Source of the DNA: a bacterium
GTDB lineage: Bacteria > Electryoneota > Electryoneia > Electryoneales > Electryoneaceae
Assembly: GCA_043801585.1 (NCBI GenBank)
Contig: JAZDLX010000184.1
Location: forward strand, 1 to 64,000
Length of the DNA: 64,000 nucleotides
Direction: 5' to 3'
The translations under genes and the position numbers were made by a program. Position 1 is the stretch's first letter, and the number at the start of each line of letters is the position of its first letter. Shown in pieces: positions 30,989-49,677 of this stretch. The notes under the pieces are model-generated. The model saw nothing but the letters and a program-made list of their open reading frames with translations. It was not told the origin of the DNA and did not search any database.

Positions 30989-33900
30989 CTATACCTTTTT
31001 CACTTGAAGTGTTGCTTCCGCCGCGCCTACCCGGGTCGTTTCCGACCCCTGCGCGCCTTTCAGCTTCTCGTTGATCTTCATCTTAACGGACAGAGTCTCA
31101 TCACGGACCGTACCATTATGTTCATCGAGTGCCTTCAGAAGATCCGCGGCATCTGTCATCACCGCGAGCTCGATCCTGTCCTCCACATCGAAACCGGTGT
31201 CTTTTCGCAGCACCTGAACCTTGCGGATCAGGTCACGCACGAGACCCTCACGCAGCAATTCATCGCTGAGGCGTATGTCAAGGGCAACCACGATCGGCTG
31301 GTTCTCCACTTCACCGGCAACGATGGTATCCCGGGGATGGGAGACGAATTTGAACAGTTCCGCGGGAACCGGAATGTCCACGCCTGAAAGCTTCAGTTCA
31401 CCGCTCTTACGGACCGTTTCAACATACTGCTGCATGGTTTCCGCATCTGCCTTGTCGAGAGCCGCCTTGACCCTGGGCGCATCCCCCCGAAGCACCTTGC
31501 CGGCAGACACAAGATCCAACATCAGCGCCTCTTCATCCAGCGCGTTTCGATGGTCGGCGAACTCGATGGTTTTGACGTTCAATTCATCGGCGATGGTCGC
31601 CACATCCTGTTTGATTATTTCCTGGAGATCCGATTCGCAGACGACATACAGCGTCTGCAGCGGCTGGCGGACCTTCAGCTGAGCCTGGTTGCGGAGGTTC
31701 AAGGCGGCGCGGATCACAGCACGATTCGTGAAAATTTCACCGAGCAGTTCGTCATCCACGCGGCTCTCGTCGGCAACGGGCCAATCGGCGAGATGAACGG
31801 ATTCCACGGCGGATTTATCGAAGGGACGCACCGCCTCCTGCCAGATGTGCTCCGTGAGGAAGGGAATGATCGGCGCCATCACGCGCAGGATGGTCCTGAT
31901 CGCCAAAGAAAGCACGACATACGCCGTGCGTTTGGAGTCACCGTCGGACTCTTTCCAAAATCGGCGGCGGTTGACACGAACATAAAAATTCGAGAGTTCA
32001 TCGACGAACGTTTCAAATTCCCGGACGACGACCGTTGTGTTGTAGTCGTCATAGGCTGCCGTGCAACGGTCGAGGAATGCCTCTGTTCGCGCCAATGCCC
32101 AGCGGTCGCTGCGGGTCAACGCCTCTTCCACGATGGTTGTGCCGGTCAGATCGAGCTTGTCAAGCTGGGCATAGGTGTTGAAGAAAACGAAGATGTTCCA
32201 GAACCCAAGCAGTTTCCGGTGAACCTCCCAACCGAGATTGAAGCCGAAGCGGACATTCTGAACTGGATTCGCGGCACAGAAAAGGTAGCGCATGGCATCC
32301 GCGCCGATCTTGTCCGCAGCTTCGTCAAACTGGATCATGTAGCCGGTTTTACTGAACCGTCCGCCCTCTTCCGAGACGACGGATTCGTGGGCAAGAACCC
32401 GCTGATAGGGCGACCGGCCCGAGATCGTGACCCCCATGAAGAGCATCGAGTAGAACCACAGGCGCACCTGCTCGCGCATTTCACAGATCCACTCGGCGGG
32501 GTACCATTTCTTCTCCCACTCCTCCCGGTCACGGAAATACCCGCGAGTCGTGTAAGGAACGATCCCTGCATCGAGCCAGACATCCCCCACCTCCGGAATA
32601 CGTGTCACACCCTCCGCGTGGCAATGGGGGCAGGTGATCGTGATCGAATCGATCCATGGGCGATGCAATTCCGGGAGGTTGTCGACGGCGGGACCACCCA
32701 ATTCCCTGAGATGGTCTCGGCTTCCGACGACAGTCACCTCACCGCATTCGTGGCAAACGTAGAAGGGAAGCGGCATTCCATAAAACCGTTTCCGGCTGAT
32801 GTTCCAATCACCCATGTTCTGCAGCCAATCCTGCATCAGCAGACCTGCATGCGCCGGTCGCCAGTCAACCTCCGCTGCAGCTTTCAGCAGTTGCGGCTTC
32901 AACTCATCGGTGCGGATGAACCAGGCATTGACCAGCTTGAACATGATCGGTGTCTTGCAGCGCCAGCAAACCGGGTAACTGTGGGTGTAATCGTGGTCGT
33001 AAAACAGCTTTCCAAGTTTCCTGATCTCCGCGATCACATCGTCGGCGACCTGGGAAGCATCGCGCCCCTCGAGCCACCCATACCCGTTGACATACACTCC
33101 TGCTTCATCAATCGGCTCGAGGCTGGGCAACCCCAACGAGTTGCCGAGTTCAAAGTCTTCCGCGCCGCAACCCGGTGCAATGTGAACGACCCCCGTTCCC
33201 TCCTCGGCATCCACCTCATCCCAGGAGACGATCTTATGTGCACCCATCGCTGCCTGCGCCGGGAGATCGGGGAACACCGTCTCGTAATGAAGCCCGAACA
33301 GTTCTTCGCCTTTGAAAACGCGTAACACCTTGAACTTCACATGGTCAATCGCCTTCAGCGCGTCTTTACCGATGATGAGTGTCCCCTCCTGCCCTGCAAC
33401 GGAGATTTCGGCGTATTCGATTGCAGGATTGATCGCGAGCGCAACGTTGGCGGCGAGTGTCCACGGTGTGGTCGTCCAAACGAGAACACGTTGTCCCGGC
33501 CTCTCTACGATGGGCAGAGCGACGATCAACGAACGGTGTGTCATCTCACGGTGCGAACCGCTCATCTCATGTTCGGAAAGGGATGTGCCGCAGCGGGTGC
33601 ACCATGACATGGCGCGCTTGTCAGTGTAGATCCAGCCTTTGTCGTGGAGCGTTCTCAGGAAATGCCAGATACCCTGGATGTTCTCATCGGTATGAGTGTA
33701 GTAGCTGTTCGGCCAGTCCATCCACTGTCCCAATCGGATCGACTGCTCTGTCTGTTTAGTGGAATAATTCTTGACTCGGGCCTTGCAGGCGTTGACGAAT
33801 TTCTCAATGCCGAATTTCTCGATCTCGGATTTGTCCTTGAAGCCGATTTCCTTCTCGACCTCGACCTCGACCCAGAGACCCTGGCTGTCGAATCCGTTCT

Positions 33901-34174
33901 GCCAATGGGTATCATATCCTCGGAGGGTTTTGTACCTGACGAAAACATCTTTCAGAGTGCGTCCCCACGCATGATGCACTCCCATGGGATTGTTGGCGGT
34001 AATCGGTCCGTCAAGAAAACGGAACGTGGGTCCTCCCGCCAACTTCTCACGGAGCTTGTCGAAACAGTTGTGTTCTTTCCAGAACGCCAGCACATCATGC
34101 TCGATCTGGATGAAATTCACACCGCTGCTTCCCTCGTCATGCGCTTTGTCATTGCCTCCGTTGACGCTACTCAT
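30989..34174 (-). CDS. ileS: Isoleucine--tRNA ligase, type 2, with altered signature motifs
   Basis: DGPITAN.PMGVHH, WTTTPWTL, GTGVVHIAPG, DWNISRKRFYG, DVWLDAG and C-terminal EGLVRDLIRKVQVLRK..F.VEDRI (IleRS2 type). An alternative start lies at 34195. Confidence 0.95.
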   Translation of the reverse strand: MSSVNGGNDKAHDEGSSGVNFIQIEHDVLAFWKEHNCFDKLREKLAGGPTFRFLDGPITANNPMGVHHAWGRTLKDVFVRYKTLRGYDTHWQNGFDSQGLWVEVEVEKEIGFKDKSEIEKFGIEKFVNACKARVKNYSTKQTEQSIRLGQWMDWPNSYYTHTDENIQGIWHFLRTLHDKGWIYTDKRAMSWCTRCGTSLSEHEMSGSHREMTHRSLIVALPIVERPGQRVLVWTTTPWTLAANVALAINPAIEYAEISVAGQEGTLIIGKDALKAIDHVKFKVLRVFKGEELFGLHYETVFPDLPAQAAMGAHKIVSWDEVDAEEGTGVVHIAPGCGAEDFELGNSLGLPSLEPIDEAGVYVNGYGWLEGRDASQVADDVIAEIRKLGKLFYDHDYTHSYPVCWRCKTPIMFKLVNAWFIRTDELKPQLLKAAAEVDWRPAHAGLLMQDWLQNMGDWNISRKRFYGMPLPFYVCHECGEVTVVGSRDHLRELGGPAVDNLPELHRPWIDSITITCPHCHAEGVTRIPEVGDVWLDAGIVPYTTRGYFRDREEWEKKWYPAEWICEMREQVRLWFYSMLFMGVTISGRSPYQRVLAHESVVSEEGGRFSKTGYMIQFDEAADKIGADAMRYLFCAANPVQNVRFGFNLGWEVHRKLLGFWNIFVFFNTYAQLDKLDLTGTTIVEEALTRSDRWALARTEAFLDRCTAAYDDYNTTVVVREFETFVDELSNFYVRVNRRRFWKESDGDSKRTAYVVLSLAIRTILRVMAPIIPFLTEHIWQEAVRPFDKSAVESVHLADWPVADESRVDDELLGEIFTNRAVIRAALNLRNQAQLKVRQPLQTLYVVCESDLQEIIKQDVATIADELNVKTIEFADHRNALDEEALMLDLVSAGKVLRGDAPRVKAALDKADAETMQQYVETVRKSGELKLSGVDIPVPAELFKFVSHPRDTIVAGEVENQPIVVALDIRLSDELLREGLVRDLIRKVQVLRKDTGFDVEDRIELAVMTDAADLLKALDEHNGTVRDETLSVKMKINEKLKGAQGSETTRVGAAEATLQVKKV

Positions 34175-34464
34175 CTTTCTCGCCTCGTGCTGCATCGTAG
34201 TGTGTTGATCCGCCGTCTACATCCCAGGATAGGGATGTATGAAACCACTGTCTCCATTCGTTCACCAGAATCACCTCAGGAACGAGATACGGCTTCGAGC
34301 AGGTCAATATAGGAAACACGGCGCCCGAACGCAGATACCGGAAGATGCTGTCCGAGACGGCTCGAGAATGGTTGATGAAACATTTTTTACCGGTCAACGC
34401 CTTCGGCTGGGAGACTGTGGAGACACACCCGGGAGTACGTCTTAATCGTTTCGGGTTTCTCCAC

Positions 34465-34493
34465 TTGATCCTTCGTCCGAAACCCTCTATGTT
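34465..34493 (+). promoter_or_regulatory. Putative sigma-70 promoter of the aromatic amino acid superoperon
   Basis: TTGATC (34465-34470), 17-nt spacer, TATGTT (34488-34493); ends 8 nt before the leader ATG. Confidence 0.55.
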
Positions 34494-34501
34494 GGTTTGT
34501 C

Positions 34502-34639
34502 ATGATGGATCGATTGCACAAGACGAGCGCACAGCAGGGTTGGTGGCGCAGCGAAAGCACTGCTTGGTGGTGGTATTACGCCAGGCCGGTGGGCGCCTCC
34601 GTCCGCTCGTTCGCATCCGTCTTCAGGACTCCCCTATAG
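34502..34639 (+). CDS. trpL: Attenuator leader peptide, Trp/Tyr-rich (MMDRLHKTSAQQGWWRSESTAWWWYYARPVGASVRSFASVFRTPL)
   Basis: Hand translation gives a 45-aa ORF with 5 Trp (WW, WWW) and tandem Tyr, directly upstream of an intrinsic terminator and the aro/trp operon. Confidence 0.85.
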   Translation: MMDRLHKTSAQQGWWRSESTAWWWYYARPVGASVRSFASVFRTPL

Positions 34640-34662
34640 CGTTACGGATCAACGGCGAAGAC

Positions 34663-34696
34663 AACGCCCACCGGAATTTCCGGTGGGCGTTTTTTT
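34663..34696 (+). terminator. Attenuator (intrinsic terminator) of the aro/trp leader
   Basis: AACGCCCACCGGA-att-TCCGGTGGGCGTT followed by a T-run. Its 5' arm is complementary to CCGGTGGGCG at 34586-34595 (antiterminator). Confidence 0.9.
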
Positions 34697-34739
34697 ATTG
34701 CCCGCCGGCACGTGAAACACGGCAGAAAGGAGCAGCGAG

Positions 34740-35771
34740 GTGATCATCGTTTTGAAGCCGGGCACGGACAAGAAGATCATCCAGGAGATACTGGATCATA
34801 TCGCCGAAACAGGCTTGAAGCCCCTGTACATGCCGGGGGAAGAGCGGGTTGTTCTCGGTGCGATCGGGGACGAACGGATTCTGGGCAAACTTCACCTTGA
34901 AAACCATCCCAGTGTCGAAGAGGTGAAGCCTGTCCTCGCTCCCTACAAGATGGTCAGCCGGGAGATCCATCCGGACGACACGGTGGTGTCCATCGGCGGG
35001 GTTCCTGTCGGAAATGGATTTTTCACGGTCATCGCCGGTCCCTGCGCCGTGGAAAGTCTCGATCAGATGCGGGAAACCGGACATGCCGTGGTGGCGGCGG
35101 GAGCCTCAGCCCTGCGCGGTGGGGCGTTCAAGCCCCGCACCAGCCCCTACTCCTTTCAGGGTCTGGGAGTGGAGGGCCTCGAGATTCTGTCTCAGGTGTC
35201 GCGGGAGTTGGGCGTTCCGACCGTTACCGAAGTTGTCGAGGTCGGGGACATCGAGGCCGTGGAACAACATTCCGACGCCTTTCAGGTCGGCGCACGCAAC
35301 ATGCAGAATTTCCGGCTCCTGATGGAACTGGGACAGTGCCGCAAGCCGGTTCTGCTGAAGCGAGGAATGGCGGCCACCATCGAGGACCTTCTGATGGCCG
35401 CCGAATACATCCTCTCGCAGGGAAACTCAAACGTCATCCTCTGCGAACGCGGCATCCGAACCTTCGAAACCGCCACTCGCAACACTCTCGATCTGAACGC
35501 CGTTCCCTTTATCAAGCAACGCAGCCACCTGCCGGTTCTCGTCGATCCCTCTCACGGCACAGGATTGCGTGAACTTGTGGCACCAATGTCTCTCGCGGCG
35601 GCGGCGGCCGGAGCGGATGGCCTGTTGATCGAGGTGCACAGGAATCCCGCACAAGCTCTTTCGGATGGACGGCAATCCCTCTTCCCCGATCAGTTTGCAG
35701 ATCTCATGGACAGGCTTCGTCCGTTGGTTTCTGCGCTTGGACGAAAACTGAACACAACGGTGGCGGCATGA
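34740..35771 (+). CDS. aroF: DAHP synthase, class I-beta with N-terminal ACT-like domain
   Basis: [44 protein letters not shown] and DPSHGTG motifs. Confidence 0.96.
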
Positions 35772-37324
35772 ACAGCGACTATCCAAAACGTTCCGTGGCT
35801 GCCGGCACCATCCACCGCGAAGTGGACCCATTTGCCCTCTACCGCCATTTGACTGGGGGAGCACCGGACACCGCCCTGCTCGAATCCCGCGATGGGAACG
35901 GTAAGAACAACACACAAAGCCTGCTTCTGGTACGTTCCGCCCTTCGCATCGAGGGTTACGGACGTCGGGTCAAGGTCACCCCTCTCACTGATGCCGGACG
36001 TTCGGTCCTCGAATCGCAACATGACCGATTGGTAAAAGTGGGAACAGCCAACTCTGAAGGAGACAGCCTTGTCATCGAGTTTCCACCCCTCGATGGGAAT
36101 GCCAGCGAGGAGGAGCGGCTTTTGGCTAACGGTCCGCTGGATATCCTGCGGACATTCGCTTTCGGCTGGAATGGACAGGAGAAAACACCGATTCTGTTGA
36201 CGGGGATGCTCGGGTATGATTTTCTGGAAACCTTTGAGAAACTCCCGCCTCCGAAGCGAGATGGCCTGAACACTCCGGACCTTCTCTTCGAACTTCCCGA
36301 AGTGCTCGTCCGCGTCGACCATCTCCACCGCGAAGTCCAGGTCCAGGTGCATTCCTACGGCAACCGAAAGCCCGATGATAAAGCGCTCGCTGAGGTCGTG
36401 AATGCCGTACAGGCCTTCCCCGAAATGGACACAGCCTCCGTTTTCACCCAAGTTCCCGAAAAAATGCCGTCCGGCTTCCACGTGGATCTCGACGATTCAG
36501 CTTACCGCGCCATTGTCGAGTTGATGAAGCGCCACATTGTCGCCGGGGATGTCTTCCAGATTGTCCCGTCCCGCACCTTCAGCCTGCCCTGCAGGGACGC
36601 AATGCAAGCATACCATGCATTGCGGGATTTGAATCCAAGCCCTTACCTGTTCTATCTCGCAGACAGGGATTTTACACTCTTTGGATCTTCGCCGGAGACC
36701 TGCGTTCGCGTGGCTGGCAATCCGCGAAAAGTCACCCTCTTCCCCATCGCCGGAACACGTCCACGTGGCAGAAACGGGGACGGCAGCCTCGATGTTGACC
36801 TCGACAACCGGCTTGAAGCAGAGCTGAAACTGCACGGGAAAGAGCTGGCTGAGCACATGATGCTCGTGGACCTGGCGCGCAACGATGTCGCCCGCATCAG
36901 CAATCCCGGGACACGGCGGGTTTCCCGCCTGCTCGAAATCGAACGGTACAGCCATGTAATGCATCTCGTCAGCCGGGTTGAGGGAACCTTGCGCGACGGG
37001 TACGACGCTCTGCACGCCTACCTCGCAACCATGACGATGGGAACACTCACAGGAGCTCCGAAAGTCGAAGCCGCCCGTTTGCTGCGAAAACACGAAGCGG
37101 ATCGACGCGGACCCTATGGAGGCGCCGTGGGCTACCTGACGTCTGAAGGGATTCTCGACACCGCTATCGTGATCCGCTCAGCCGTCGTCCTCAGTGGGAT
37201 CGCTCATGTCCGCGCGGGAGCCGGAATCGTGTTCGATTCTCAGCCGCAGGCGGAAGCGGATGAAACCCGCAGCAAGGCGAATGCGGTTCTTCAGGCGATA
37301 GCACTTTCGGAAGGAGGCCGGTGA
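35768..37324 (+). CDS. trpE: Anthranilate synthase component I
   Basis: ALLES, GDVFQIVPSR, NPSPY, PIAGTRPRG, KELAEHMMLVDLARND and GTLTGAPK motifs. Confidence 0.96.
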   Translation: MNSDYPKRSVAAGTIHREVDPFALYRHLTGGAPDTALLESRDGNGKNNTQSLLLVRSALRIEGYGRRVKVTPLTDAGRSVLESQHDRLVKVGTANSEGDSLVIEFPPLDGNASEEERLLANGPLDILRTFAFGWNGQEKTPILLTGMLGYDFLETFEKLPPPKRDGLNTPDLLFELPEVLVRVDHLHREVQVQVHSYGNRKPDDKALAEVVNAVQAFPEMDTASVFTQVPEKMPSGFHVDLDDSAYRAIVELMKRHIVAGDVFQIVPSRTFSLPCRDAMQAYHALRDLNPSPYLFYLADRDFTLFGSSPETCVRVAGNPRKVTLFPIAGTRPRGRNGDGSLDVDLDNRLEAELKLHGKELAEHMMLVDLARNDVARISNPGTRRVSRLLEIERYSHVMHLVSRVEGTLRDGYDALHAYLATMTMGTLTGAPKVEAARLLRKHEADRRGPYGGAVGYLTSEGILDTAIVIRSAVVLSGIAHVRAGAGIVFDSQPQAEADETRSKANAVLQAIALSEGGR

Positions 37325-37938
37325 TGAACGGCAGGTTGAACGTTTTCTTCCTCGACAATGTGGACTCCTTCGTTTTCAACCTCGTTGATGAATTCTCCCG
37401 GCGGAGGTGCAATGTCCAAATCTGGAGAAACACGATCTCCGTTGAACGGGCACTCGGCCTCCTCGCCACAATGCCGGAGCCGAAACTGCTGGTGATCAGC
37501 CCGGGGCCCGGATCGCCGGGAGAGGCGGGATGCAGTGTTGAATTGATCCGTCGCCTGCCGGTGGAGATCCCGATGCTGGGTGTCTGCCTCGGTCACCAGG
37601 CACTGATCGAAGCCTATGGCGGGATCGTAGGTCCCGCGGGTGAGATCGTTCACGGAAAATCATCCCTCCTCACCCACGACGGCACCGGCCTGTTCGAGAA
37701 CATTCCCAGCCCGATGATGATCGGACGCTACCATTCTCTTTCGGCACTGAAGATGCCGGCATCGCTGCGAGTAATCGCTTCCCTGGGCGGCATCGTGATG
37801 GCTGTCGAGCACGAATCACGACCCCTCTGGGGAGTGCAGTTCCATCCGGAATCCATTCTCACCCCGCACGGAGGACGACTTCTCGAAAACGTCTTGAGAA
37901 GAGTCGTTACCCCCGTCAAGGAGGTACAGCATGCATGA
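37324..37938 (+). CDS. trpG: Anthranilate synthase component II (glutamine amidotransferase)
   Basis: LDNVDSF, SPGPG, GVCLGHQ, RYHSL and QFHPES motifs. Confidence 0.95.
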   Translation: MNGRLNVFFLDNVDSFVFNLVDEFSRRRCNVQIWRNTISVERALGLLATMPEPKLLVISPGPGSPGEAGCSVELIRRLPVEIPMLGVCLGHQALIEAYGGIVGPAGEIVHGKSSLLTHDGTGLFENIPSPMMIGRYHSLSALKMPASLRVIASLGGIVMAVEHESRPLWGVQFHPESILTPHGGRLLENVLRRVVTPVKEVQHA

Positions 37939-38941
37939 CTACCTCGACAGAGTAGCGAACCGTCAGGCGTTGAACGGTTCTGAAATGGAAGAGATTTTCA
38001 GCGCCATGGTCGCGGGCGAACTGGAACCGGTTTACATCGCTGCTCTGCTGGTTGGCCTGCGAACGAAGGGCGAAACCCCCGAAGAAATCGCCGGAGCGGC
38101 AAAAGCCCTGCGCGACCACGCTCTTCCCTTTCCCGCACCATCCGGAACCTTTGTGGATGTTTGTGGAACTGGCGGTGATTCCTCGGGCACGATCAACATT
38201 TCCACCGCCGCTGCCGTGGTGCTGGCGGAAATGGGAATTCCTGTTGCCAAACATGGCAATCGTTCCGTTTCGTCAAAATGCGGGTCCGCGGATCTTCTCG
38301 AAGCATTTGGCGTAAAGTTGGACCCCGAACCTGCAATAGCGCGGAAATGTCTTGATGAGGTGGGGATTTGCTTCCTCTTTGCGCCGCAGTATCACAGTGG
38401 CCTGCGTCACGCCATGCCGATCCGCAAGGCGCTGAGAATGAGGACCATTTTCAACATCCTCGGCCCCCTTGCGAATCCGGCACAGCCGCCAGTGCAGTTA
38501 ATGGGAGTCTACGATGCAGCATTGGTTGTTCCCATTGCCAAAACGTTGAGTCATCTCGGCGCTCAAAAATCTCTCGTTGTCCACGGCGATGGACTCGACG
38601 AAATCAGCGTCTCTGCCCCGACGACAGCGGCGATGTCGACGAATGGGACCGTCGAAACACTCGAAATCATCCCGGAGGAAACGGGACTTAAACGGTATCC
38701 ACAAGAAGCGTTGGCAGGTGGAGACGCAGCGGAAAACCGGAAGTTGATCGAAGCGCTTTTATCCGGAAAGGGATCTCCCGCCCATGAGGCAGCGGTGGCT
38801 ATCAACGCCGGGGCCGCAGCCTGGGTCGCCGGAACTGCATCATCTCTTCGGGATGGCACTCAGTCAGCCCTCGAAACCATCCGTTCAGGCAAATGCATCG
38901 AACGGGTAAACCAATGGGCGGAGATCTCACATGGTTCTTGA
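37931..38941 (+). CDS. trpD: Anthranilate phosphoribosyltransferase
   Basis: DVCGTGGD..NIST, KHGNRSVSSKCGSADLLE, RTIFNILGPLANP and GLDEIS motifs. Confidence 0.97.
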   Translation: MHDYLDRVANRQALNGSEMEEIFSAMVAGELEPVYIAALLVGLRTKGETPEEIAGAAKALRDHALPFPAPSGTFVDVCGTGGDSSGTINISTAAAVVLAEMGIPVAKHGNRSVSSKCGSADLLEAFGVKLDPEPAIARKCLDEVGICFLFAPQYHSGLRHAMPIRKALRMRTIFNILGPLANPAQPPVQLMGVYDAALVVPIAKTLSHLGAQKSLVVHGDGLDEISVSAPTTAAMSTNGTVETLEIIPEETGLKRYPQEALAGGDAAENRKLIEALLSGKGSPAHEAAVAINAGAAAWVAGTASSLRDGTQSALETIRSGKCIERVNQWAEISHGS

Positions 38942-40316
38942 CAGAATCATCGAACACAAGCGCCAGGAGGTCGATGACCAGCAGCGGAACCTGCCACTCG
39001 AGCAGTTTCTGGACCGGATCGATCCCAGCAATCGTTCCTTTCTCAAGGCGATCACCCGCGAACACACGGGCTTCATTCTCGAGGTAAAAAAGGCGTCGCC
39101 GTCACAAGGATTGATCCGGGAGGATTTTGACCCACTCCTGATCGCGGAAGCGTACGCGCCGTTTGCGGATGCGATCAGTGTCCTGACAGACCGGAAATTC
39201 TTTCAGGGCAGCTTCCAGACGCTCGAAATCATACGCGGCGTAGCGCCTCAACCCGTGCTCTGCAAAGACTTCATCCTTGAGCCCTACCAGGTGTACAAGG
39301 CGCGGCTGCATGGCGCCGACGCCGTTCTGCTGATGCTTTCGGTGCTTGACGATAATGAGTATTTGGCGTGCAACTCGGCCGTCGAGGAATTGCAGATGAG
39401 TGCGCTCGTCGAGGTGCACACACCGCAGGAGCTGGAGCGGGCAAGGAAACTCGGCGCGAAAATCATCGGGATCAACAATCGAAACCTGAAGACACTCGAG
39501 GTTGACCTTGACACGACACTCCATCTCGCTCCGGAGGCAAAAACCTTTGCGGATGCCGTTGTCTGTGAATCGGGCATTCATTCGCATGATGACGTGCTCC
39601 GACTACGGGATTGCGTGGACGCCTTTCTGGTCGGGACGAGCCTGATGGCGCGGCCGGATCTCGGGTTCGCTGTCCGGGAAATCATCTTTGGCCCAACGAA
39701 AGTGTGTGGATTGACACGCGTGGAAGACGTCCGCGCGGCCCAGGCAGCGGGAGCCGTGTACGGCGGCATGATTTTTGCCGAAAATTCTCCGCGTCGAATA
39801 ACATCGGAACTCGCAATAGAACTGAACCGGGGGGCACCCCTGCGGTGGGTGGGAGTATTCGTGAATTCACCGGTGGAAACGGTGGCCGATCACGCTCACA
39901 GGCTGAACCTCACCGCAGTCCAGCTCAACGGAGATGAAAACGGGGAGTACATCCACACGCTTCGTCCCCTGCTGCCCGGAAGCTGCGAGATCTGGAAAGC
40001 GCACCCTATTGCGGACAGGATACCGACGCTGAAAATGGACGGTGTCGACCGGCACTTGCTCGATGCCTTCGACCCGGTCATGCGTGGCGGCACAGGAAAG
40101 ACGTTCAATTGGACATTATTGAACGGCACGGACCGCAACAAGATCATTCTCTCGGGTGGTTTGAATCCGACCAACGCCGCTCAGGCGGATCGCGTTGGCG
40201 CTGCCATTCTTGATGTCAATTCCGGAGTCGAACAGGCGCCGGGCCGAAAAGATCCCAGGAAGCTGACAGAGTTTTTCAGAGAACTTCGGGGAGTGCGCAC
40301 AGGGGGAGAACGATGA
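38931..40316 (+). CDS. trpCF: Bifunctional indole-3-glycerol phosphate synthase / phosphoribosylanthranilate isomerase
   Basis: [26 protein letters not shown] and ESGI (TrpC), followed by [20 protein letters not shown] and DVNSGVE (TrpF). Confidence 0.96.
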
Positions 40317-41503
40317 GACAGAATGGACGATTCGGCAAGTGGGGCGGTTGTTTCGTGCCCGAGATCCTGCTCCCTGCGCTCGAACAACTCGAAGCCGCGT
40401 GGCTGGATTTTCGCGAGAACGACAGCTTCCGCAAAGAACTCGACACCCTGCTGCGCGATTATGCCGGGCGGCCGACACCCCTTTACTGTTGCCGGAATCT
40501 CGCGGCGGACACACCCGCGCAAATCTGGCTGAAACGAGAAGACCTTCTCCACGGCGGGGCACACAAGACCAACCAGGTGCTGGGGCAGGCTTTGCTCGCA
40601 CGCCACCTGGGAAAGACCCGGTTGATTGCGGAGACGGGTGCAGGACAGCACGGCGTCGCCACTGCGTTTGTCGGCGCTCTGTTTGGTTTCGAGACGGTGA
40701 TCTACATGGGGGCGAAGGATGTCGAGCGCCAGCGGCAAAACGTTTTTCGCATGGAGCTGATGGGCGCTGCTGTGATCCCGGTGACCAAGGGATCGGCCAC
40801 GTTAAAAGACGCGATCAATGACGCGATGCGTGACTGGACAGCGAGCTATGAGACAACCCACTACATGCTCGGGACGGTTGCAGGCCCGCACCCCTTCCCC
40901 AGTATGGTACGTGATTTTCAGAGCGTCATCGGAAACGAAGCCCGCAACCAGATACTAAGCAAAACAGGACGCCTTCCCGATGAAGTGATCGCCTGCGTGG
41001 GTGGCGGATCCAATGCCATCGGCATCTTTCACGCCTTCCTTGACGACCGGGATGTAACTCTCGTCGGAGTGGAACCGGCAGGACGCGGACTCGCAACGGG
41101 GCAGCATGGAGCATCTCTCGAACTTGGAACGCCCGGTGTACTTCACGGTTCGTTTACCCACCTGCTGCAGAACGGCGATGGTCAGGTTGAGGAATCCTAC
41201 TCCATCTCAGCGGGATTGGACTATCCCGGAGTGGGACCTGAACACGTCCACCTGCGGGAAACAGGCCGAGCCACCTATACATCGGCGACAGACGAAGAGG
41301 CTCTGAATGCGTTCGAGGCTCTCGCACGCCACGAGGGCATCCTCCCCGCGCTTGAGTCCGCCCACGCCGTTGCCTACGCATTGAAGCGGGCGCGAGAAAC
41401 AAGGGAAGAATCCATTCTGCTCGTCAATCTCTCCGGGCGCGGCGACAAGGATCTCGAAACCGTTCGCAAGGCGCTTTCAACTGAGACGATGGAGGTGGCG
41501 TGA
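40313..41503 (+). CDS. trpB: Tryptophan synthase beta chain
   Basis: [49 protein letters not shown] and NLSGRGDKD motifs. Confidence 0.98.
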
Positions 41504-42321
41504 GCGCACGCTATGAAAAGATGTTCCGTCGCCTTGGCGATCTGGGAGAGATCGCATTTGTCCCGTTCACGGTGCTCGGCGACCCGAACCCGGAAGCGAG
41601 CCTTGAGGCCATCCGGGCGATGATTTCGGGGGGGGCCGATGCGCTCGAACTTGGCATTCCCTTTTCCGATCCGGTGGCGGACGGCCCGACGATTCAGGCG
41701 GCAGACATTCGGGCTCTCTCCTCGGGGTCGACCGTTCATTCAGCATGGAATCTGATTTCGAGGATACGAACCGAGAATCCCGATCTGCCCATCGGTCTGC
41801 TCCTTTACGCCAATCTCGTCGTGCACGGCGGACTGGAAGCCTTCTACCACAACGCCTTGAAAGCAGGTGTGGACTCGGTGCTCGTCGCCGATTTACCCAC
41901 TCTTGAAGCGATCCCATTCTGCACGGCTGCGCGGCGTGCGAGTATTGATCCCGTTCTGATCGCTCCACCAAACGCAGATGTTCAGCGGCTCGAAATCATT
42001 TCCCGAGAGGGCCGTGGGTACACCTACGTGATCACTCGGCGGGGAGTCACTGGAGCCGACGAACAGGTTCACCTGGACCACACCGCACTGCTCGATACGC
42101 TGCAAAGGTTTCAGGCGCCTCCCCCACTTTTCGGCTTCGGCATCTCGAAACCCGAACATGTGCTCGCAGCGAAATATGCCGGCGCCGCCGGTGTGATCAG
42201 CGGTTCGGCTGTCGTCTCCCGTATCGAAAGAAATCTTGGGGACATCGATTCCATGGTGAAGGACATCCATGATTTCGTCGTGGAGATGAAGGCGGCGACT
42301 CGCAACGGAGGCCGGTCATGA
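41500..42321 (+). CDS. trpA: Tryptophan synthase alpha chain
   Basis: [27 protein letters not shown] and ISGSA motifs. Confidence 0.98.
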
Positions 42322-43412
42322 TTCTCAGCCATTTGACATTTATCCGAGAGTCCAGCAGCCGCATTCTTCTCGAATCCGGAGCGAGGAGCCACCTGAGCAA
42401 CTTCGTCGATCTCGATTTTGTGACGAGCGCCACCCTGATCGCTGATACGAACGTTTACTCGTTCCACGGCTCCGAAGTCCGTGATTCGCTCGAACACCTT
42501 TTCGGATCGGTTACCGTGATCACAGTCCCTCCCGGCGAAGGCAGCAAGACCCGGGACACCGTGGCCAAAATTCAGGATCGACTGAGCGAAGAGAAGGTTG
42601 ACCGCCGAGGTCTCGTCGTCGGGTTGGGCGGAGGTGTGACGCTCGATATTGCCGGGTATGTCGCAGCGACCTATCTGCGAGGCATTCCCTGGATTGCGAT
42701 GCCGACCTCTCTGCTCGCCCAGGTGGACGCGGGAATCGGTGGCAAGACCGGTGTCAATACGAGCAAAGGAAAGAATCTCGCTGGCGCGTTTCATCCACCT
42801 TTGCAGGTCATCATCGACCCTGAGGTCCTGAATACTCTCCCCTTGATTGAATGGAGAAATGGACTCGTGGAAGCGGTCAAACATGCCTGGATTGCCGATG
42901 CAGATCTGTTCTCACTGTTCGAGAACACTGCTTCATCCCTGAAGAGCGGCCCGGACTCACATCTTCATGACTGGCTAAATGCAGCGATCCAAGTAAAAAT
43001 ATCTGTTGTTGCTGAGGATCCTTTTGAACTGGGAAAGCGCTCGATCCTTAACGCCGGGCATACAGTCGGTCACGCCATCGAGGCGGCGACCGATCATGCG
43101 ATCAGGCATGGATTCGCCGTTGCGAGAGGTCTTGTTGTCGAATCGAGAGCGGCTGGCGAAAGAACCGGATTGCCTGTGGATCACATCCGGAGACTCGAAC
43201 ATCTGCTGGAAGAGCTGGAGGTGCTGCCGCCTACAAACGGCATCGATTTCGACTCTCTCCTCCCCTTCCTGCTTCGTGACAAAAAGAATCAGCGGGATCA
43301 TGTTCGCATCTCCCTGCCGGCGAGCCTCGGCCGTTCCTCTGCGATTGATGGTTCGTGGACGATTGACGTGCAACCGGACGCGTTGCGCCACGCCTGGGAG
43401 AGTTTCCAATGA
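42318..43412 (+). CDS. aroB: 3-dehydroquinate synthase
   Basis: GEGSK, GGGVTLDIAGYVAATYLRGI, PTSLLAQVDAGIGGKTG, KNLAGAF and LNAGHTVGHAIE motifs. Confidence 0.95.
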   Translation: MILSHLTFIRESSSRILLESGARSHLSNFVDLDFVTSATLIADTNVYSFHGSEVRDSLEHLFGSVTVITVPPGEGSKTRDTVAKIQDRLSEEKVDRRGLVVGLGGGVTLDIAGYVAATYLRGIPWIAMPTSLLAQVDAGIGGKTGVNTSKGKNLAGAFHPPLQVIIDPEVLNTLPLIEWRNGLVEAVKHAWIADADLFSLFENTASSLKSGPDSHLHDWLNAAIQVKISVVAEDPFELGKRSILNAGHTVGHAIEAATDHAIRHGFAVARGLVVESRAAGERTGLPVDHIRRLEHLLEELEVLPPTNGIDFDSLLPFLLRDKKNQRDHVRISLPASLGRSSAIDGSWTIDVQPDALRHAWESFQ

Positions 43413-44845
43413 TCTGTGTGACAGGTCTTGAACGGACGATAGCGGAACTGGCCCGCCGACTCGAACAGTATTCCGGGCAGTTGCAGGAAGTGCGGCTGGA
43501 CGCGCTCGACCGGATCGAAGAAGATATCTACCACCTGCTGAAACTTCACGATCCGTTGATCGTCACCTGCCGCGGGACAGCCGAGGGAGGACTGTTCACG
43601 GGAACGCCCGGAGAGCAATCGGAGATCCTGCATCGTCTGCTCATCTCCAACCCAGCCTATGTCGACCTCGAGACGAGCATCCCGTTAAACATCCGCAGGA
43701 CACTTGAACATGCCGGGCAGAACTCTCGAATCATCACGTCGCATCATCAGTTCAAAACCTCCTTGACGATTCGAAACGATCTCCTGAAGCTCTCCGATGA
43801 ACCGGGCGATCTGTTGAAATATGCAGTTCAGGTCGGCGACGCGGCGGAATTGCTTCCGCTCCTTGAGACGCAGATTCCGGATCACCGCCCCTTCCTGCGC
43901 ATCGGGATGGGCGATGCGGGAATGATCACGCGCGGACTCTTTTCCTCGTTCGGATCGCCATGGACGTACGTCACCGCGGATTCCTCCACTTCATCTGCAC
44001 CGGGTCAGTTGACCGTCGAACAGGCAAAGCGGTGGCGGATCGACTCCCTTTCCCACCCTGCACCATACGGGTTGATTGGAGGACCACAGGTCATCCACTC
44101 GCCGGGAATGGACGTCTACAACCAGTTGTTTGCAGGTTACGGTGTGGATGCCCTGTATCTGCCCATTATTACCGCTCGCCTCGGGGATACCCTTCCTTTG
44201 CTGAAGGCGCTCGATTTCGCGGGACTCAGCGTCACCATGCCCGCGAAGATCGCCGCTTTGGAACTCTGCGACGAACGATCCGAGGAAGCGGTTGCTGCTG
44301 GTGCGGTGAACACTATCCTCTTTAATCACAAACAGTTCATCGGCGACAACACGGATGTTACGGCCTTGCGCGAACTGCTTCGTGACGAGACAGGAAAGGT
44401 CCTTATCCTCGGTGCGGGCGGTGTGGCGCGAGCCGCCCTTGCGGCTGTGGGACAACGGGGAATTGTGACCGCCCGTGACCCGGAACGCGCAACAGCCGTC
44501 GCCGGTATGTTTGGCGCTGCGACTCTGGAGTGGGAGCACCGCGATCGATGCGGCGCGAGAACAATTGTCAACGCCACTCCCCTCGGCATGGACGGCATCT
44601 CCAGCCCCCTTCCCGCGGAGACTCCACTTGCGGACAAACGGATCATCGACGTTGTGATGAAACGGGACGGCACACCGTTGACGCGCCGTGCAAAGGAGGC
44701 CGGAGCAAAAGTCGTGGACGGTTTCGAGATCTGGGTGCGACAGGGTGCTGCACAGATGAGCAGATTCCTCGACCGCAAGGTCACCGCAGGAGAGTTGCGA
44801 ACGCTCCTCGACGAGCTTCACGCTGGAGCATTCAATGGACCTTAG
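43409..44845 (+). CDS. aroE: Fused type I 3-dehydroquinate dehydratase / shikimate dehydrogenase (AroD-AroE)
   Basis: N-terminal EVRLD, VTCR..EGG, YVDLE, SHH, GMG and APGQ (AroD type I). C-terminal HSP, SVTMPAK, GAVNT, GDNTD, LGAGGVARA and VNATPLGM (AroE). Confidence 0.9.
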   Translation: MICVTGLERTIAELARRLEQYSGQLQEVRLDALDRIEEDIYHLLKLHDPLIVTCRGTAEGGLFTGTPGEQSEILHRLLISNPAYVDLETSIPLNIRRTLEHAGQNSRIITSHHQFKTSLTIRNDLLKLSDEPGDLLKYAVQVGDAAELLPLLETQIPDHRPFLRIGMGDAGMITRGLFSSFGSPWTYVTADSSTSSAPGQLTVEQAKRWRIDSLSHPAPYGLIGGPQVIHSPGMDVYNQLFAGYGVDALYLPIITARLGDTLPLLKALDFAGLSVTMPAKIAALELCDERSEEAVAAGAVNTILFNHKQFIGDNTDVTALRELLRDETGKVLILGAGGVARAALAAVGQRGIVTARDPERATAVAGMFGAATLEWEHRDRCGARTIVNATPLGMDGISSPLPAETPLADKRIIDVVMKRDGTPLTRRAKEAGAKVVDGFEIWVRQGAAQMSRFLDRKVTAGELRTLLDELHAGAFNGP

Positions 44846-46028
44846 GCTGTCGATCTCCGCCCCCGCCTCGAAGAGTGCGACCCAGCGGGCTCTGTTCCTG
44901 TCGACGCTCGCGTCAGGAACGAGTACGCTTCACGGACCGCTCGACTGCGAAGACAGCCGGGCTCTCGCAGATGCTTTACGCGGTTTGGGTGTGAAGATCG
45001 ATCAGCAATCGGACCGGTGGATCGTATCTGGAGACACTCTGCAAGCGGCTTCGGCGACCCTGTACTGCTCAAACGCGGGAACCTGCATCCGTTTTCTGGC
45101 GGCGGCGTCTCTGCTGTTGCCATCATCGGTGACACTGGACGCCGGAGAGCAGTTGCGGAAACGGCCGTTGCAAGACATTGCGGATGCTCTCAGACGTGCA
45201 GGAATGCACGTTGAATTCACGGATCGTGAAGGGTTTGCTCCGCTTACGATCACTCCTGGAGATTCCATCCGTAACGAGATCGAGCTGGATGCCAGCCGCA
45301 CCAGCCAGTTCCTTTCGGGCCTGTTGATGGTTGCGCCTCGCTTGGGCGGTATAAGTATCCGCACCGGAAAACATCTGGTCTCGCGTCCCTATGTGGATCT
45401 GACGCTCGCCCTGATGTCGGCGTTCGGAGGACCTCCTGTCCGTGAACATGAAAACGTTTTTTTCGTACCGGCGGGAGCCTACCAGGCGTGCGACATGACC
45501 ATCGAGGGCGACTGGTCCGCCGCCGCGATGATCCTGACAGCGGGCTGGATTTCCGGTCTGAAAATAGACATCCCCAATCTGAATTCTGAAAGTGTCCAGG
45601 GCGACCGGGCGATCGTTCTGTTTCTGGAAGAACTGGGGAGGCCCCGCCATCACCGTTTCGACCTGGCGATATGCCCTGATCTGATCACTCCGCTCGCAGT
45701 GGCCTGCGCATTTGCGGAGCATCCCAGTGAGATTCGGAACGTTGCACATGCCCGGATCAAGGAAAGTGACCGGATTGCCGCCACGGTCCAAATGCTGAAC
45801 GCTGTTGGCGTCGCGGCCGAACAACTTGCAGATGGATTGCTCATCACGCCGGGAGGTGCTTTTCACCCGGCAACCGTCGAGGATCATGGCGATCATCGCG
45901 TCGCCATGGCGGCGGGGGTGATTTCTTTACGCATCCCCGGAGTGAAACCGACAACCCCGGAATGCGTAAAAAAATCCTACCCGAATTTCTGGAATGTCAT
46001 GGAGGAACTGCGATGTTCCTTACGCTGA
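44835..46028 (+). CDS. aroA: 3-phosphoshikimate 1-carboxyvinyltransferase (EPSP synthase)
   Basis: PASKSATQR, NAGTCIRF, SQFLSGLL, SRPYVDLT, EGDWS, RIKESDRI and GDHRVAMA motifs. Confidence 0.94.
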   Translation: MDLRLSISAPASKSATQRALFLSTLASGTSTLHGPLDCEDSRALADALRGLGVKIDQQSDRWIVSGDTLQAASATLYCSNAGTCIRFLAAASLLLPSSVTLDAGEQLRKRPLQDIADALRRAGMHVEFTDREGFAPLTITPGDSIRNEIELDASRTSQFLSGLLMVAPRLGGISIRTGKHLVSRPYVDLTLALMSAFGGPPVREHENVFFVPAGAYQACDMTIEGDWSAAAMILTAGWISGLKIDIPNLNSESVQGDRAIVLFLEELGRPRHHRFDLAICPDLITPLAVACAFAEHPSEIRNVAHARIKESDRIAATVQMLNAVGVAAEQLADGLLITPGGAFHPATVEDHGDHRVAMAAGVISLRIPGVKPTTPECVKKSYPNFWNVMEELRCSLR

Positions 46029-46534
46029 TCGGTCCCCGTGGCGCAGGGAAAACAACTCTCGGCCGTAAGCTCGCCGACCGAGTCGGAGTGAGCTTCACTG
46101 ATCTCGACACTGTGATCGAGTGGAAAGAGGGGCGTTCCGTGCCGGACATCTTTGCACACGGTGGCGAGGCTGAATTTCGAATCCTGGAACGGGAAGCATT
46201 CGAAGAAATGCACTGCCGCGATGCAACGATTCTGGCGACAGGTGGTGGAGTCATTTTTCATCCGGAGACTCAGATTGAATTGGGAATCACGGGGAAAACG
46301 ATTCTCCTGCTCGCCGACCCGATAGTTCTTGCGGAGCGGATACGGGGTTCTGAACGTCCCAGCCTCACGGGTCTGGACGCGGCGAGTGAGATTGGACAGG
46401 TTCTCGCCGAGCGCCGTGAGATCTACGAAAAGTGCGCGGCGCGTACGATTGACACAACAATCCTTTCGATTGAAGAGGCGGTCGATGTCCTCGAACACAT
46501 TTGGAAATCTCTTTCGGGCGACCAGTTTCGGTGA
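46013..46534 (+). CDS. aroK: Shikimate kinase
   Basis: LIGPRGAGKTT P-loop, DLD, GEAEFR..E, ATGGG and RPSL motifs; ATG at 46013 with GGAGGA upstream. Confidence 0.92.
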   Translation: MFLTLIGPRGAGKTTLGRKLADRVGVSFTDLDTVIEWKEGRSVPDIFAHGGEAEFRILEREAFEEMHCRDATILATGGGVIFHPETQIELGITGKTILLLADPIVLAERIRGSERPSLTGLDAASEIGQVLAERREIYEKCAARTIDTTILSIEEAVDVLEHIWKSLSGDQFR

Positions 46535-47570
46535 GTCCCATGGTGCAGGCATTGGCGTCGTCATCGATGGCGTGCCACCGCGCCTGCGTCTCGACCTGGA
46601 GGCCATCCAACTCCAGCTCGACCGACGCCGTCCCGGCCAGAGCAGAGTAACAACATCGCGATCCGAATCGGACCGTGTTGAGGTTCTCTCCGGACTCCAT
46701 GAGGGGGTTACCACCGGTGCGCCTCTAACCCTGTTCGTTCGGAACAGCAACACCCGGCCGGAAGACTACGAAAATCTTCGCAACACCTTCCGCCCCGGGC
46801 ATGCGGATTTCACCTGGTACAAGAAATACGGAGTCCGTGATTATCTCGGAGGCGGACGCTCCTCCGGACGCGAGACCATCGCCCGGGTGGCGGCGGGCGC
46901 GGTGGCGAGGCAGATCCTCGCGGTTCATGGAATTTCCGTTCTCGGATACGTCGTTTCGGTGGGAGACGTCGAAGTTGAATCGTTTGACCCTGCTATCATC
47001 GAATCGAATCCTGTGCGCTGCGCGGACCCTGACGCCGCCGCCCGGATGGAAGCCCTGATTCTTCGCGTGAAGGAAGATGGCGACTCGGTTGGTGGAATCG
47101 TCGAGGTCCGCTGCCAGGGGGTACCTGCCGGACTCGGCGATCCGGTGTTCGACAAACTGGATGCCCTGATTGCCCGGGCAATTCTTTCCATCGGTGCGAC
47201 GAAAGGGATCGAATTTGGATTGGGGTTTGCAATGGCTCGAATGCGCGGCAGCCAGGCTCACGATCCGATCCGTCCAGATGGAGTCGATGGCGACCGGGCG
47301 GGAGGCATTCTCGGCGGTGTCTCAAACGGAGGCGATATCGTTTTCCGTGTTGCAGTGAAACCACCTGCGTCAATTGAACTCGAACAGGATACCGTCACCC
47401 TCGACAATCAACCCCACCGCATCGCCGTACAGGGGCGTCATGACCCTTGCATCGCACCGAGATTGGTTCCTGTTGCCGAGGCGATGACGGCGCTCGTGCT
47501 TGTCGATGTATTGATGAGACAGACGGCACTTCGAGGAGTACTGCCGGAAGATGGTGATAACGATGCTTGA
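46485..47570 (+). CDS. aroC: Chorismate synthase
   Basis: Start at MSSNTFG; GESHG, RRRPGQ, RPGHAD, GGGRSSGRET and GRHDPC motifs. Confidence 0.97.
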   Translation: MSSNTFGNLFRATSFGESHGAGIGVVIDGVPPRLRLDLEAIQLQLDRRRPGQSRVTTSRSESDRVEVLSGLHEGVTTGAPLTLFVRNSNTRPEDYENLRNTFRPGHADFTWYKKYGVRDYLGGGRSSGRETIARVAAGAVARQILAVHGISVLGYVVSVGDVEVESFDPAIIESNPVRCADPDAAARMEALILRVKEDGDSVGGIVEVRCQGVPAGLGDPVFDKLDALIARAILSIGATKGIEFGLGFAMARMRGSQAHDPIRPDGVDGDRAGGILGGVSNGGDIVFRVAVKPPASIELEQDTVTLDNQPHRIAVQGRHDPCIAPRLVPVAEAMTALVLVDVLMRQTALRGVLPEDGDNDA

Positions 47571-49610: not shown

Positions 49611-49677
49611 TCCACCATGTAAAACGCCGCACCTCGCAGGTACGGCGTCGCTTCCATTCTGTTCAGGGATTCGGTCG

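Follow-up and report, generated by a model that had tools for sequence, protein, structure and literature searches.

A putative Trp- and Tyr-codon leader-peptide attenuator ahead of a 14-gene aromatic amino acid operon in Electryoneota

The ribosome-stalling logic of trpL attenuation is textbook knowledge. The Escherichia coli trp leader comprises 14 codons, two of which are tryptophan (Trp) codons, and E. coli also has multivalent attenuators, with Thr and Ile codons in the thr leader and Leu, Val and Ile codons in the ilvGMEDA leader. An open reading frame (ORF) with Trp codons is likewise carried by the Bacteroid-trp motif. We examined a stretch of 64,000 nucleotides (nt) from an Electryoneota bacterium (contig JAZDLX010000184.1 of assembly GCA_043801585.1; hereafter the window), and we report on a 45-codon leader ORF with Trp and tyrosine (Tyr) codons that is followed by an intrinsic terminator and precedes a 14-gene operon for aromatic amino acid biosynthesis. 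On sequence grounds, we give a probability of roughly 0.8 to this element being a working Trp-sensing, ribosome-mediated transcription attenuator. Trp sensing has good support, and Tyr sensing is plausible without being proven.

A basic description of trpL-type attenuation is given in the available excerpt of PMC11802643, which also describes, after Neshat et al. 2014, the aroR leader located before the aroF operon of Corynebacterium glutamicum; it carries Phe-Tyr-Phe and responds to phenylalanine (Phe), not to Tyr. As presented in that excerpt, aroR is similar to the element of the window in being a leader-peptide attenuator before a DAHP synthase gene, with aromatic codons that include Tyr, but the trp operon of C. 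glutamicum has its own separate trpL, whereas in the window one leader precedes the DAHP synthase, trp and shikimate genes and tyrA. The excerpted part of Song et al. 2005 (PMC1173090) reports trp/aro supraoperons, with predicted attenuators ahead of several of those that contain tyrA. According to the same excerpt, the Bacillus subtilis aro/trp supraoperon is a large unit that brings trp genes together with tyrA and genes of the common pathway, as the window does; it differs in gene order and fusions and in its control by TRAP, for which we found no gene here. The Bacteroid-trp motif (RF01692) was described as a cis-regulatory RNA that accompanies trp genes in bacteria of a group related to Bacteroidetes (excerpt of Weinberg et al. 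2010, PMC2864571); both this motif and the element of the window are trp-linked cis RNA elements, but they share no sequence match. In a full-text search of a limited set of papers, we found no leader combining Trp and Tyr codons, and nothing on a trp leader of Desulfovibrio.

Compared with E. coli trpL, the window has the same general layout: a short ORF with adjacent Trp codons, four RNA segments predicted in the window to form alternative 1:2, 2:3 and 3:4 hairpins, and a terminator just ahead of the first biosynthetic gene. It differs from trpL in the length of the ORF (45 codons), in having two control clusters and Tyr codons, in the absence of a Shine-Dalgarno sequence, in a stop codon that lies 41 nt beyond region 2, and in an operon that adds the common pathway and the Tyr branch. 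With the thr and ilvGMEDA leaders of E. coli it has in common a single leader with codons for several amino acids that match the products of the operon, though the amino acids are different ones. The parts of the locus are the following:

34465–34493, + strand: promoter-like site, with a -35-like hexamer (34465–34470), a 17-nt spacer and a -10-like hexamer (34488–34493)
34502–34639, + strand: leader ORF, 45 sense codons and a TAG stop (from translation)
34541–34546, + strand: first control cluster, Trp codons 14–15 (from translation)
34565–34579, + strand: second control cluster, Trp codons 22–24 followed by Tyr codons 25–26 (from translation)
34558–34591, + strand: predicted anti-antiterminator (1:2) hairpin, 5′ arm 34558–34569 and 3′ arm 34579–34591 (from the minimum-energy fold)
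34586–34595, + strand: antiterminator strand (region 2), within codons 29–32, exact complement of 34665–34674 (10/10)
34601–34660, + strand: inner hairpin between regions 2 and 3, including the 3′ end of the ORF and its stop (from the predicted fold)
34663–34698, + strand: intrinsic terminator, with region 3 (34663–34675), loop (34676–34678), region 4 (34679–34691) and a U tract to 34698 (from the terminator scan)
34740–49610, + strand: governed operon of 14 genes (Pfam matches; successive ORFs overlap or abut)

An earlier reading of this stretch, made from the letters alone (the sequence-only reading), had already placed the ORF and its Trp, Tyr and Phe codons, and retranslation of 34502–34639 returned the same coordinates. 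The two control clusters hold five Trp and two Tyr codons in total; Phe codons 37 (34610) and 41 (34622) also lie within the ORF, and the TAG stop is at 34637. The terminator consists of a perfect 13-bp stem with nine G-C pairs, a 3-nt loop and a T run, located 41 nt before the DAHP synthase start. The scan of 34000–50000 listed 20 terminator-like sites, a count near the shuffle background (16.7 ± 3.3), and the other 19 were much weaker than this one. The isoleucyl-tRNA-synthetase-like gene upstream is encoded on the minus strand (30989–34195), and because the element lies in this divergent intergenic region of 544 nt, the terminator does not end any upstream gene.

The same reading had pointed out a 10-nt segment at 34586–34595 that repeats part of the terminator 3′ arm and complements the 5′ arm, and this was confirmed: the two are identical, and the segment formed the best duplex of the terminator 5′ arm with the upstream leader (-24.0 kcal/mol). 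Dinucleotide-shuffled leaders gave a mean duplex energy of -14.9 kcal/mol (standard deviation 2.2). Since none of the 500 shuffles reached the observed value, the 2:3 pairing is above chance. Antiterminator and terminator pairing are mutually exclusive. The attenuation of the trpL/pheL type that had been proposed is supported, as the sequence-level parts that it requires were found or, for the 1:2 hairpin, predicted, and the element is conserved alongside the operon.

We searched 41 relatives at the DNA level and detected the element only in the same-genus genome G001; further relatives were reached through proteins. The search for Trp/Tyr-rich small ORFs (sORFs) in relatives that had been suggested earlier recovered the element in G001 and in two metagenome contigs, L062 and L063. 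In G001 (80% DNA identity), all 14 genes are present in unchanged order. The leader there is equally long, with no indel; its second control cluster (three Trp codons, then two Tyr codons) and its region 2 are identical, the codons aligned to Trp 14–15 are Ser-Trp, and the terminator has one compensatory change of a stem pair. L062 is near-identical to G001. In L063 the DAHP synthase is 80% and TrpE 62% identical to those of the window, with the same gene order to trpD. The L063 leader has 44 codons, and its ORF aligns gaplessly with the stop in the same column, so that the frame, the length of 44–45 codons and the stop column are common to the window, G001 and L063. Identity between the window and L063 was 92% in region 2, 92% in region 3, 85% in region 4 and 100% in the stop codon, against 41% over the whole stretch, a pattern that, to judge from the alignment, is the expected trace of an RNA switch read by the ribosome. 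Region 2 with its two flanking nt was invariant at 11 out of 12 positions across the three leaders, and the codon of Trp 24 was invariant in all of them. The control codons of L063 are Tyr 14, 16 and 20 and a single Trp at 23 (3:1 in favour of Tyr); one of the Tyr codons is aligned with Trp 15 and another is found two codons later.

Such a long ORF (44–45 codons vs 25–27), with length and stop position conserved in three lineages, might also point to a function in trans of the terminated leader RNA or of the 45-residue peptide, besides or instead of control in cis, and the excerpted literature on rnTrpL/peTrpL of Sinorhizobium offers a precedent. We consider this unlikely, as little of the peptide is conserved apart from the control codons and region 2, with 18% invariant nucleotide positions in codons 33–45 in the comparison of the window, G001 and L063. 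Because these codons are poorly conserved, a constraint at the RNA level rather than at the peptide level fits the data. Another ORF of 132 codons, in a different frame (34345–34743, + strand), spans both the leader and the terminator; its frame is not kept in G001 and the ORF is most likely spurious.

For folding, we ended the transcript at region 3 and masked 28 nt for the ribosome, counting the antiterminator pairs formed out of 10:

A site at W14: 9/10
A site at W15, W22, W23 or W24: 10/10
A site at Y25: 9/10
A site at Y26: 6/10
A site at F37 or F41: 8/10
Ribosome at the stop codon: 0/10, with region 2 pairing back onto the Trp-codon segment
Ribosome absent: 9/10

The folding with masked ribosome footprints, as proposed in the sequence-only reading, was favourable in one respect, the full or nearly full antiterminator at both Trp clusters and Tyr 25 and its loss at the stop, and unfavourable in another, namely that the states without a ribosome or with a ribosome at a Phe codon also pair. 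In the predicted 1:2 hairpin, Trp 22–23 are located in the 5′ arm, Trp 24 and Tyr 25–26 in the loop, and half of region 2 in the 3′ arm. With the ribosome at the stop, a second pairing is predicted between 34542–34549 and 34593–34600. In these folds, regions 2 and 3 pair at the foot of a long hairpin, on which the upper part (34601–34660) stacks. This inner hairpin is poorly conserved in sequence, and a hairpin at the matching position is predicted in L063. We predicted the 1:2 hairpin in all three genus-type leaders (window, G001 and L063), in registers that vary by lineage: G001 has an equivalent hairpin, and L063 a stronger one, with Tyr 20 and Trp 23 in its 5′ arm. Just past the U tract, the segment 34699–34709 is complementary to region 2 and to the terminator 3′ arm, and folding of the full-length leader pairs it with 34585–34595; G001 has an identical segment, and L063 has none.

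In the mechanism that we propose, transcription would begin within a few nt upstream of the leader ATG, and translation of the leader would be co-transcriptional. With ample Trp and Tyr, the ribosome would reach the stop at 34637 and the control-codon segment would refold onto region 2 (1:2), leaving region 3 free to form the 3:4 terminator, so that the transcript would end near 34696. When charged tRNA-Trp, and probably also charged tRNA-Tyr, runs short, a ribosome stalled with Trp 14–15, Trp 22–24 or Tyr 25 in its A site would instead cover region 1 and expose region 2, which would pair with region 3 before region 4 is made and allow readthrough into the DAHP synthase gene and the remaining operon. 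Because the stop of the window's leader lies 41 nt beyond region 2, a ribosome located there cannot mask region 2. We infer that the 1:2 refolding behind the ribosome takes over this masking, whereas in the shorter leaders of the phylum (see below) the ribosome at the stop would itself cover region 2.

Regarding the start of the transcript, the promoter-like site matched the consensus at 8 out of 12 positions. The same -35/-10 arrangement and spacing were found aligned in G001, with 9 out of 12 consensus matches, and the -35-like hexamer is also aligned in L063. There is no Shine-Dalgarno sequence before the leader ATG at 34502, and the -10-like hexamer ends 8 nt before this ATG. Because of these two features leaderless translation is predicted, and the sequence suggests that the leader ORF is translated from a leaderless or nearly leaderless transcript.

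We then considered trp leaders across the phylum, in a set of 79 species genomes. The trpE gene (counted at E 1e-60 or better) was present in 15 of them. All 13 trpE loci outside the genus had an upstream small ORF with two to four Trp codons, followed by a segment complementary to the terminator 5′ arm and then by a terminator, before trpE (13/13). A covariance model of the leaders gave exactly one match per genome in 16 of the 79 genomes, always before a trp operon. These 16 genomes comprised the 15 with trpE and G072, which was outside the training set and whose match before trpE encodes three consecutive Trp codons. Leaders were 44–45 codons long in the clade of the window vs 25–27 codons in 12 out of 14 from elsewhere in the phylum; the stop of the short leaders was located 5–11 nt past region 2 in 10 of the 11 correctly parsed loci, compared with the gap of 41 nt in the window. 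The automatic choice of the leader took the wrong upstream ORF in 3 out of 15 loci (L050, L055 and L057). The short leaders of the f6 and f9 families are similar to the window in their Trp-rich ORF, in governing an operon that includes DAHP synthase, in a common core of the terminator stem, and in the pairing of the terminator 5′ arm with a region 2 that overlaps codons of the Val-Gly type. They differ from it in having no inner hairpin, a stop close to region 2, and the DAHP synthase as the last gene of the trp operon, not the first.

The MAFFT and covariance-model alignments (A2, A4 and A6) shifted the terminator arms by 1–2 columns in several sequences, and because they were out of register we assessed covariation with an anchor-based table and shuffle tests, not by counting pairs. 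Among the 16 leaders, regions 2, 3 and 4 were swapped jointly at two stem positions in the clade of the window relative to the rest. The automatic choice of region 2 in the anchor table landed on Trp codons in 6 of the 16 rows; the duplex search identified the expected, homologous region 2 site as the best partner of the terminator 5′ arm in 15 of the 16 leaders. On the strength of these sequences, the element is very likely a working ribosome-mediated attenuator of the 14-gene Trp/Tyr operon; it is conserved in the genus and in one more distant relative, and shorter Trp leaders are found wherever the phylum has a trp operon. In the window's own family, this type of DAHP synthase was found in 2 out of 16 genomes and trpE (at E 1e-30 or better) in 3 out of 16. 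Whole families of the phylum lack both trpE and this DAHP synthase type, and Trp auxotrophy seems to be the rule in the phylum.

Several observations speak against attenuation at this locus, or against its conservation. The antiterminator formed 9 of its 10 pairs with no ribosome and 8 with the ribosome at either Phe codon, so the folds give the Trp and Tyr codons no special standing. With region 4 present, the terminator was the minimum-energy structure in every mask state (13/13 pairs); because it dominates all full-length folds, the switch must be kinetic, like that of known attenuators, and beyond what folding shows. The pre-terminator leader of G001 folded no better than its own shuffles (z = 0.36). 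The promoter-like site was one match below the threshold of the promoter scan and was thus not listed by it. Moreover, two metagenome-assembled genomes (MAGs) of another lineage (L006 and L007) have a DAHP synthase 69% identical to that of the window, followed by trpE, trpG and trpD, and in L006, with this same gene order after the DAHP synthase, there was no recognisable leader or terminator upstream; in L007 the DAHP synthase gene is internal to a longer operon, the start of which is out of view. Finally, a covariance model built without the genus matched only the terminator hairpin of the window (15.6 bits, E 0.011) and gave no match in G001 or L063 (E up to 1), with G072 scoring 59.5 bits. 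That the leader of the window is homologous to those of f6/f9, a possibility we had considered, is not supported by this model. Because it misses the full leader, what the comparison establishes for the long leader is shared architecture and not common descent.

The dominance of the terminator in every fold would also be expected of a chance ORF located beside a constitutive terminator or insulator that lowers transcription of the operon. This explanation is, in our view, very improbable. It is at odds with the run of Trp codons, with the exact 10-nt complement that 0/500 shuffles equalled, with the ORF frame and stop kept in diverged relatives, and with the one-per-genome tie to trp operons in 16 of the 79 genomes; furthermore, a constitutive terminator before an essential biosynthetic operon would be maladaptive.

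We also compared the locus with described RNA families. A scan of 33900–35000 against Rfam (E up to 10) returned only sub-threshold matches, which were driven by the terminator. RF00513 (Trp_leader) reached 17.5 bits (E 1.5) against a gathering threshold of 41, so that the element is not a member of this family, and RF01692 (Bacteroid-trp) gave no match in the same scan. The T-box (RF00230) was matched neither in the window region nor in G001 and L063. At gathering threshold, the only Rfam match in 14 trpE loci and six further loci was a T-box in L008. In another explanation, antitermination depends on a TRAP-like protein or, as in a T-box, on a tRNA, and the ORF is uninvolved. This has parallels elsewhere: the DAHP synthase-trpE operons of Firmicutes have a T-box at the same place (L008, 93 bits), and the Bacillus aro/trp supraoperon uses TRAP, as stated in the excerpt of PMC1173090. 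For the window we regard it as the least credible of the explanations considered, given that neither a T-box nor any other Rfam family was above threshold in the window region, G001 and L063, and that the TRAP gene (TrpBP, PF02081) had 0 matches in the 92%-complete genome (a gene search, in which repeated TRAP-binding triplets were not scanned for), with a positive control search in Bacillus subtilis.

Two loci outside the phylum are worth recording. In Lachnoanaerobaculum (L008:2195–2439; also L009 and L065), the T-box precedes the DAHP synthase gene and then trpE; to judge by this match, the DAHP synthase-trpE pair is gated there by a different RNA mechanism. In a Lentisphaerae MAG (L010:2280–2460), a Phe/Tyr-rich sORF, followed by a terminator-like hairpin and a T run, is found before a DAHP synthase gene and has no Rfam match; this sORF is a possible Phe/Tyr leader.

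Going back to the window, the genes of the governed operon, all on the + strand and assigned by Pfam, are as follows:

34740–35771: DAHP synthase with a ferredoxin-like N-terminal domain, first gene
Genes 2–7: trpE, trpG, trpD, trpC-trpF fusion, trpB, trpA
Genes 8–12: aroB, aroD-aroE fusion, aroA, aroK, aroC
47551–48615: chorismate mutase-prephenate dehydrogenase (tyrA), gene 13
48612–49610: class IV aminotransferase, gene 14, whose ATG overlaps the tyrA stop

The terminator scan of 34000–50000 revealed no strong internal terminator within the operon, and we infer that the 14 genes form a single transcript; the gene after the class IV aminotransferase is on the opposite strand. The aromatic superoperon under a leader with DAHP synthase first, as described in the sequence-only reading, was thus recovered in a fuller form, with 14 overlapping or abutting genes that extend to tyrA and the aminotransferase. 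The aminotransferase belongs to class IV (branched-chain type). Its gene is translationally coupled to tyrA, with the same arrangement in G001, and the enzyme presumably supplies the final transamination to Tyr, for which this would be an unusual family. The DAHP synthase and TrpE of the window (34740–37324) are nearer to those of the other-lineage MAGs (69% and 49%) than to those of same-phylum loci outside the genus (at most 52% and 44%), and their genes may have been horizontally exchanged.

The earlier observation that the operon has no gene of the Phe branch extends to the genome: prephenate dehydratase (PF00800) was not found in the window's genome (92% complete), in a search that was positive in all 14 control genomes. 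It was also not found in G001, G057, G020, G034 and G037, which are trp-operon genomes of the phylum; one of these six genomes is 100% complete. The corresponding six organisms must either obtain Phe from outside or make it with an enzyme that escapes recognition. To all appearances, the aromatic biosynthesis found in the genome, of Trp and Tyr and not of Phe, lies entirely in the operon of the window.

The presence of Tyr codons beside the Trp codons followed the position of tyrA: they were found only where tyrA is under the same leader, in two lineages with differing gene orders. In the f9 family, Tyr and Trp codons alternate, with four Tyr, three Trp and one Cys codon in a stretch of eight codons in two genomes, and three Tyr codons in a third. 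The leader of G057 (f9) governs trpEGDCFBA, two DAHP synthases, prephenate dehydrogenase, aroA, aroE, aroC, aroK and an aroB-aroQ fusion; because its gene order and fusions are different, this superoperon was assembled separately from that of the window. Among the 11 leaders of f6, none had Tyr beside the Trp codons (0/11). The f6 operon stops after trpA and DAHP synthase where its end was examined (G020 and G034), and tyrA was located elsewhere in the four f6 genomes searched (4/4), adjoining a second DAHP synthase gene in two of them. Tyr 25 of the window is located 9 nt before region 2, and the last Trp of the f9 leaders 8 nt before it.

These patterns have to be set against a simpler explanation, in which the attenuator senses Trp only and the Tyr codons are passengers, either as A/U-rich nucleotides of the loop or carried along by expansion of the Trp repeat. 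Tyr 25–26 both lie in the predicted 1:2 loop, where they may have a structural role, and a ribosome with Tyr 26 in its A site would cover about 4 nt of region 2, leaving 6 of the 10 antiterminator pairs. The alternating Trp/Tyr run of f9 can be read as a repeated 6-nt unit, for which duplication may be the origin. Few independent lineages underlie the association of Tyr codons with tyrA (two, vs one without Tyr codons), and the Tyr codon of the C. glutamicum aroR leader confers no response of its operon to Tyr supply, according to the excerpt of PMC11802643. Passenger codons would not explain why Tyr outnumbers Trp 3:1 in the control zone of L063, where one Tyr codon is located in the arm that sequesters region 2, nor why Tyr is found beside Trp in both lineages with tyrA under the leader and in 0/11 f6 leaders; in addition, the Tyr-making operons of those two lineages have no other visible Tyr signal. 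We regard a Trp-only attenuator as a serious contender, though one that falls clearly short of being probable.

Given a working Trp attenuator, the chances that the Tyr codons also act as control codons seem to us evenly balanced, on the basis of the comparative pattern. Tyr sensing had been suggested in the sequence-only reading as a possibility, which the association of Tyr codons with tyrA and the L063 leader have strengthened. We tentatively propose, at somewhat less than even odds, that a single leader peptide with leaderless translation responds to the charging of tRNA-Trp as well as tRNA-Tyr and acts as a gate for all the aromatic biosynthesis found, and that Tyr codons joined the Trp codons twice independently, with the merger of tyrA and the common pathway, and largely replaced Trp in one relative. 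That this gating would cover all the aromatic biosynthesis found follows from the fact that no gene of the Phe branch was found. On the other hand, the earlier argument that stalling at the two Phe codons, downstream of region 2, should not promote readthrough does not hold, as 8/10 antiterminator pairs are still predicted at F37 or F41. Because the folds do not discriminate, the case against Phe sensing is based on the poor conservation of the Phe codons and on the missing Phe branch.

As other candidate Tyr leaders, we considered Tyr/Phe-rich sORFs located before the second DAHP synthase of f6 (L033 and L035), and set them aside, since promoter-like sequence overlaps with them and no terminator follows. 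A five-residue run, Tyr-Pro-Tyr-Ser-Cys, is found in one of these sORFs as in the L063 leader but with different Ser codons; this may be due to chance.

Leader-peptide attenuation has been documented mostly in Proteobacteria, Actinobacteria and few other groups. The mechanism itself is textbook, and what is new here is the mix of Trp and Tyr codons, the reach over the whole pathway, the long ORF with an inner hairpin, and the likely leaderless start. With our results, the known range of the mechanism would come to include a small phylum with few cultured members, in which the 15 genomes with trpE (15/15) and one more genome with a trp operon have a Trp-rich leader. The covariance model of the leaders would serve as a specific marker of trp operons in the phylum and could be used for annotation. 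In the window, a single switch would govern the entry enzyme of the shikimate pathway and both end branches, through a leader peptide that is apparently translated without a ribosome-binding site. This would be a natural case of control codons changing as the genes for a second end product join an operon, and the Trp-only and the Trp and Tyr leaders of the phylum would make a directly testable pair for the study of regulatory evolution.

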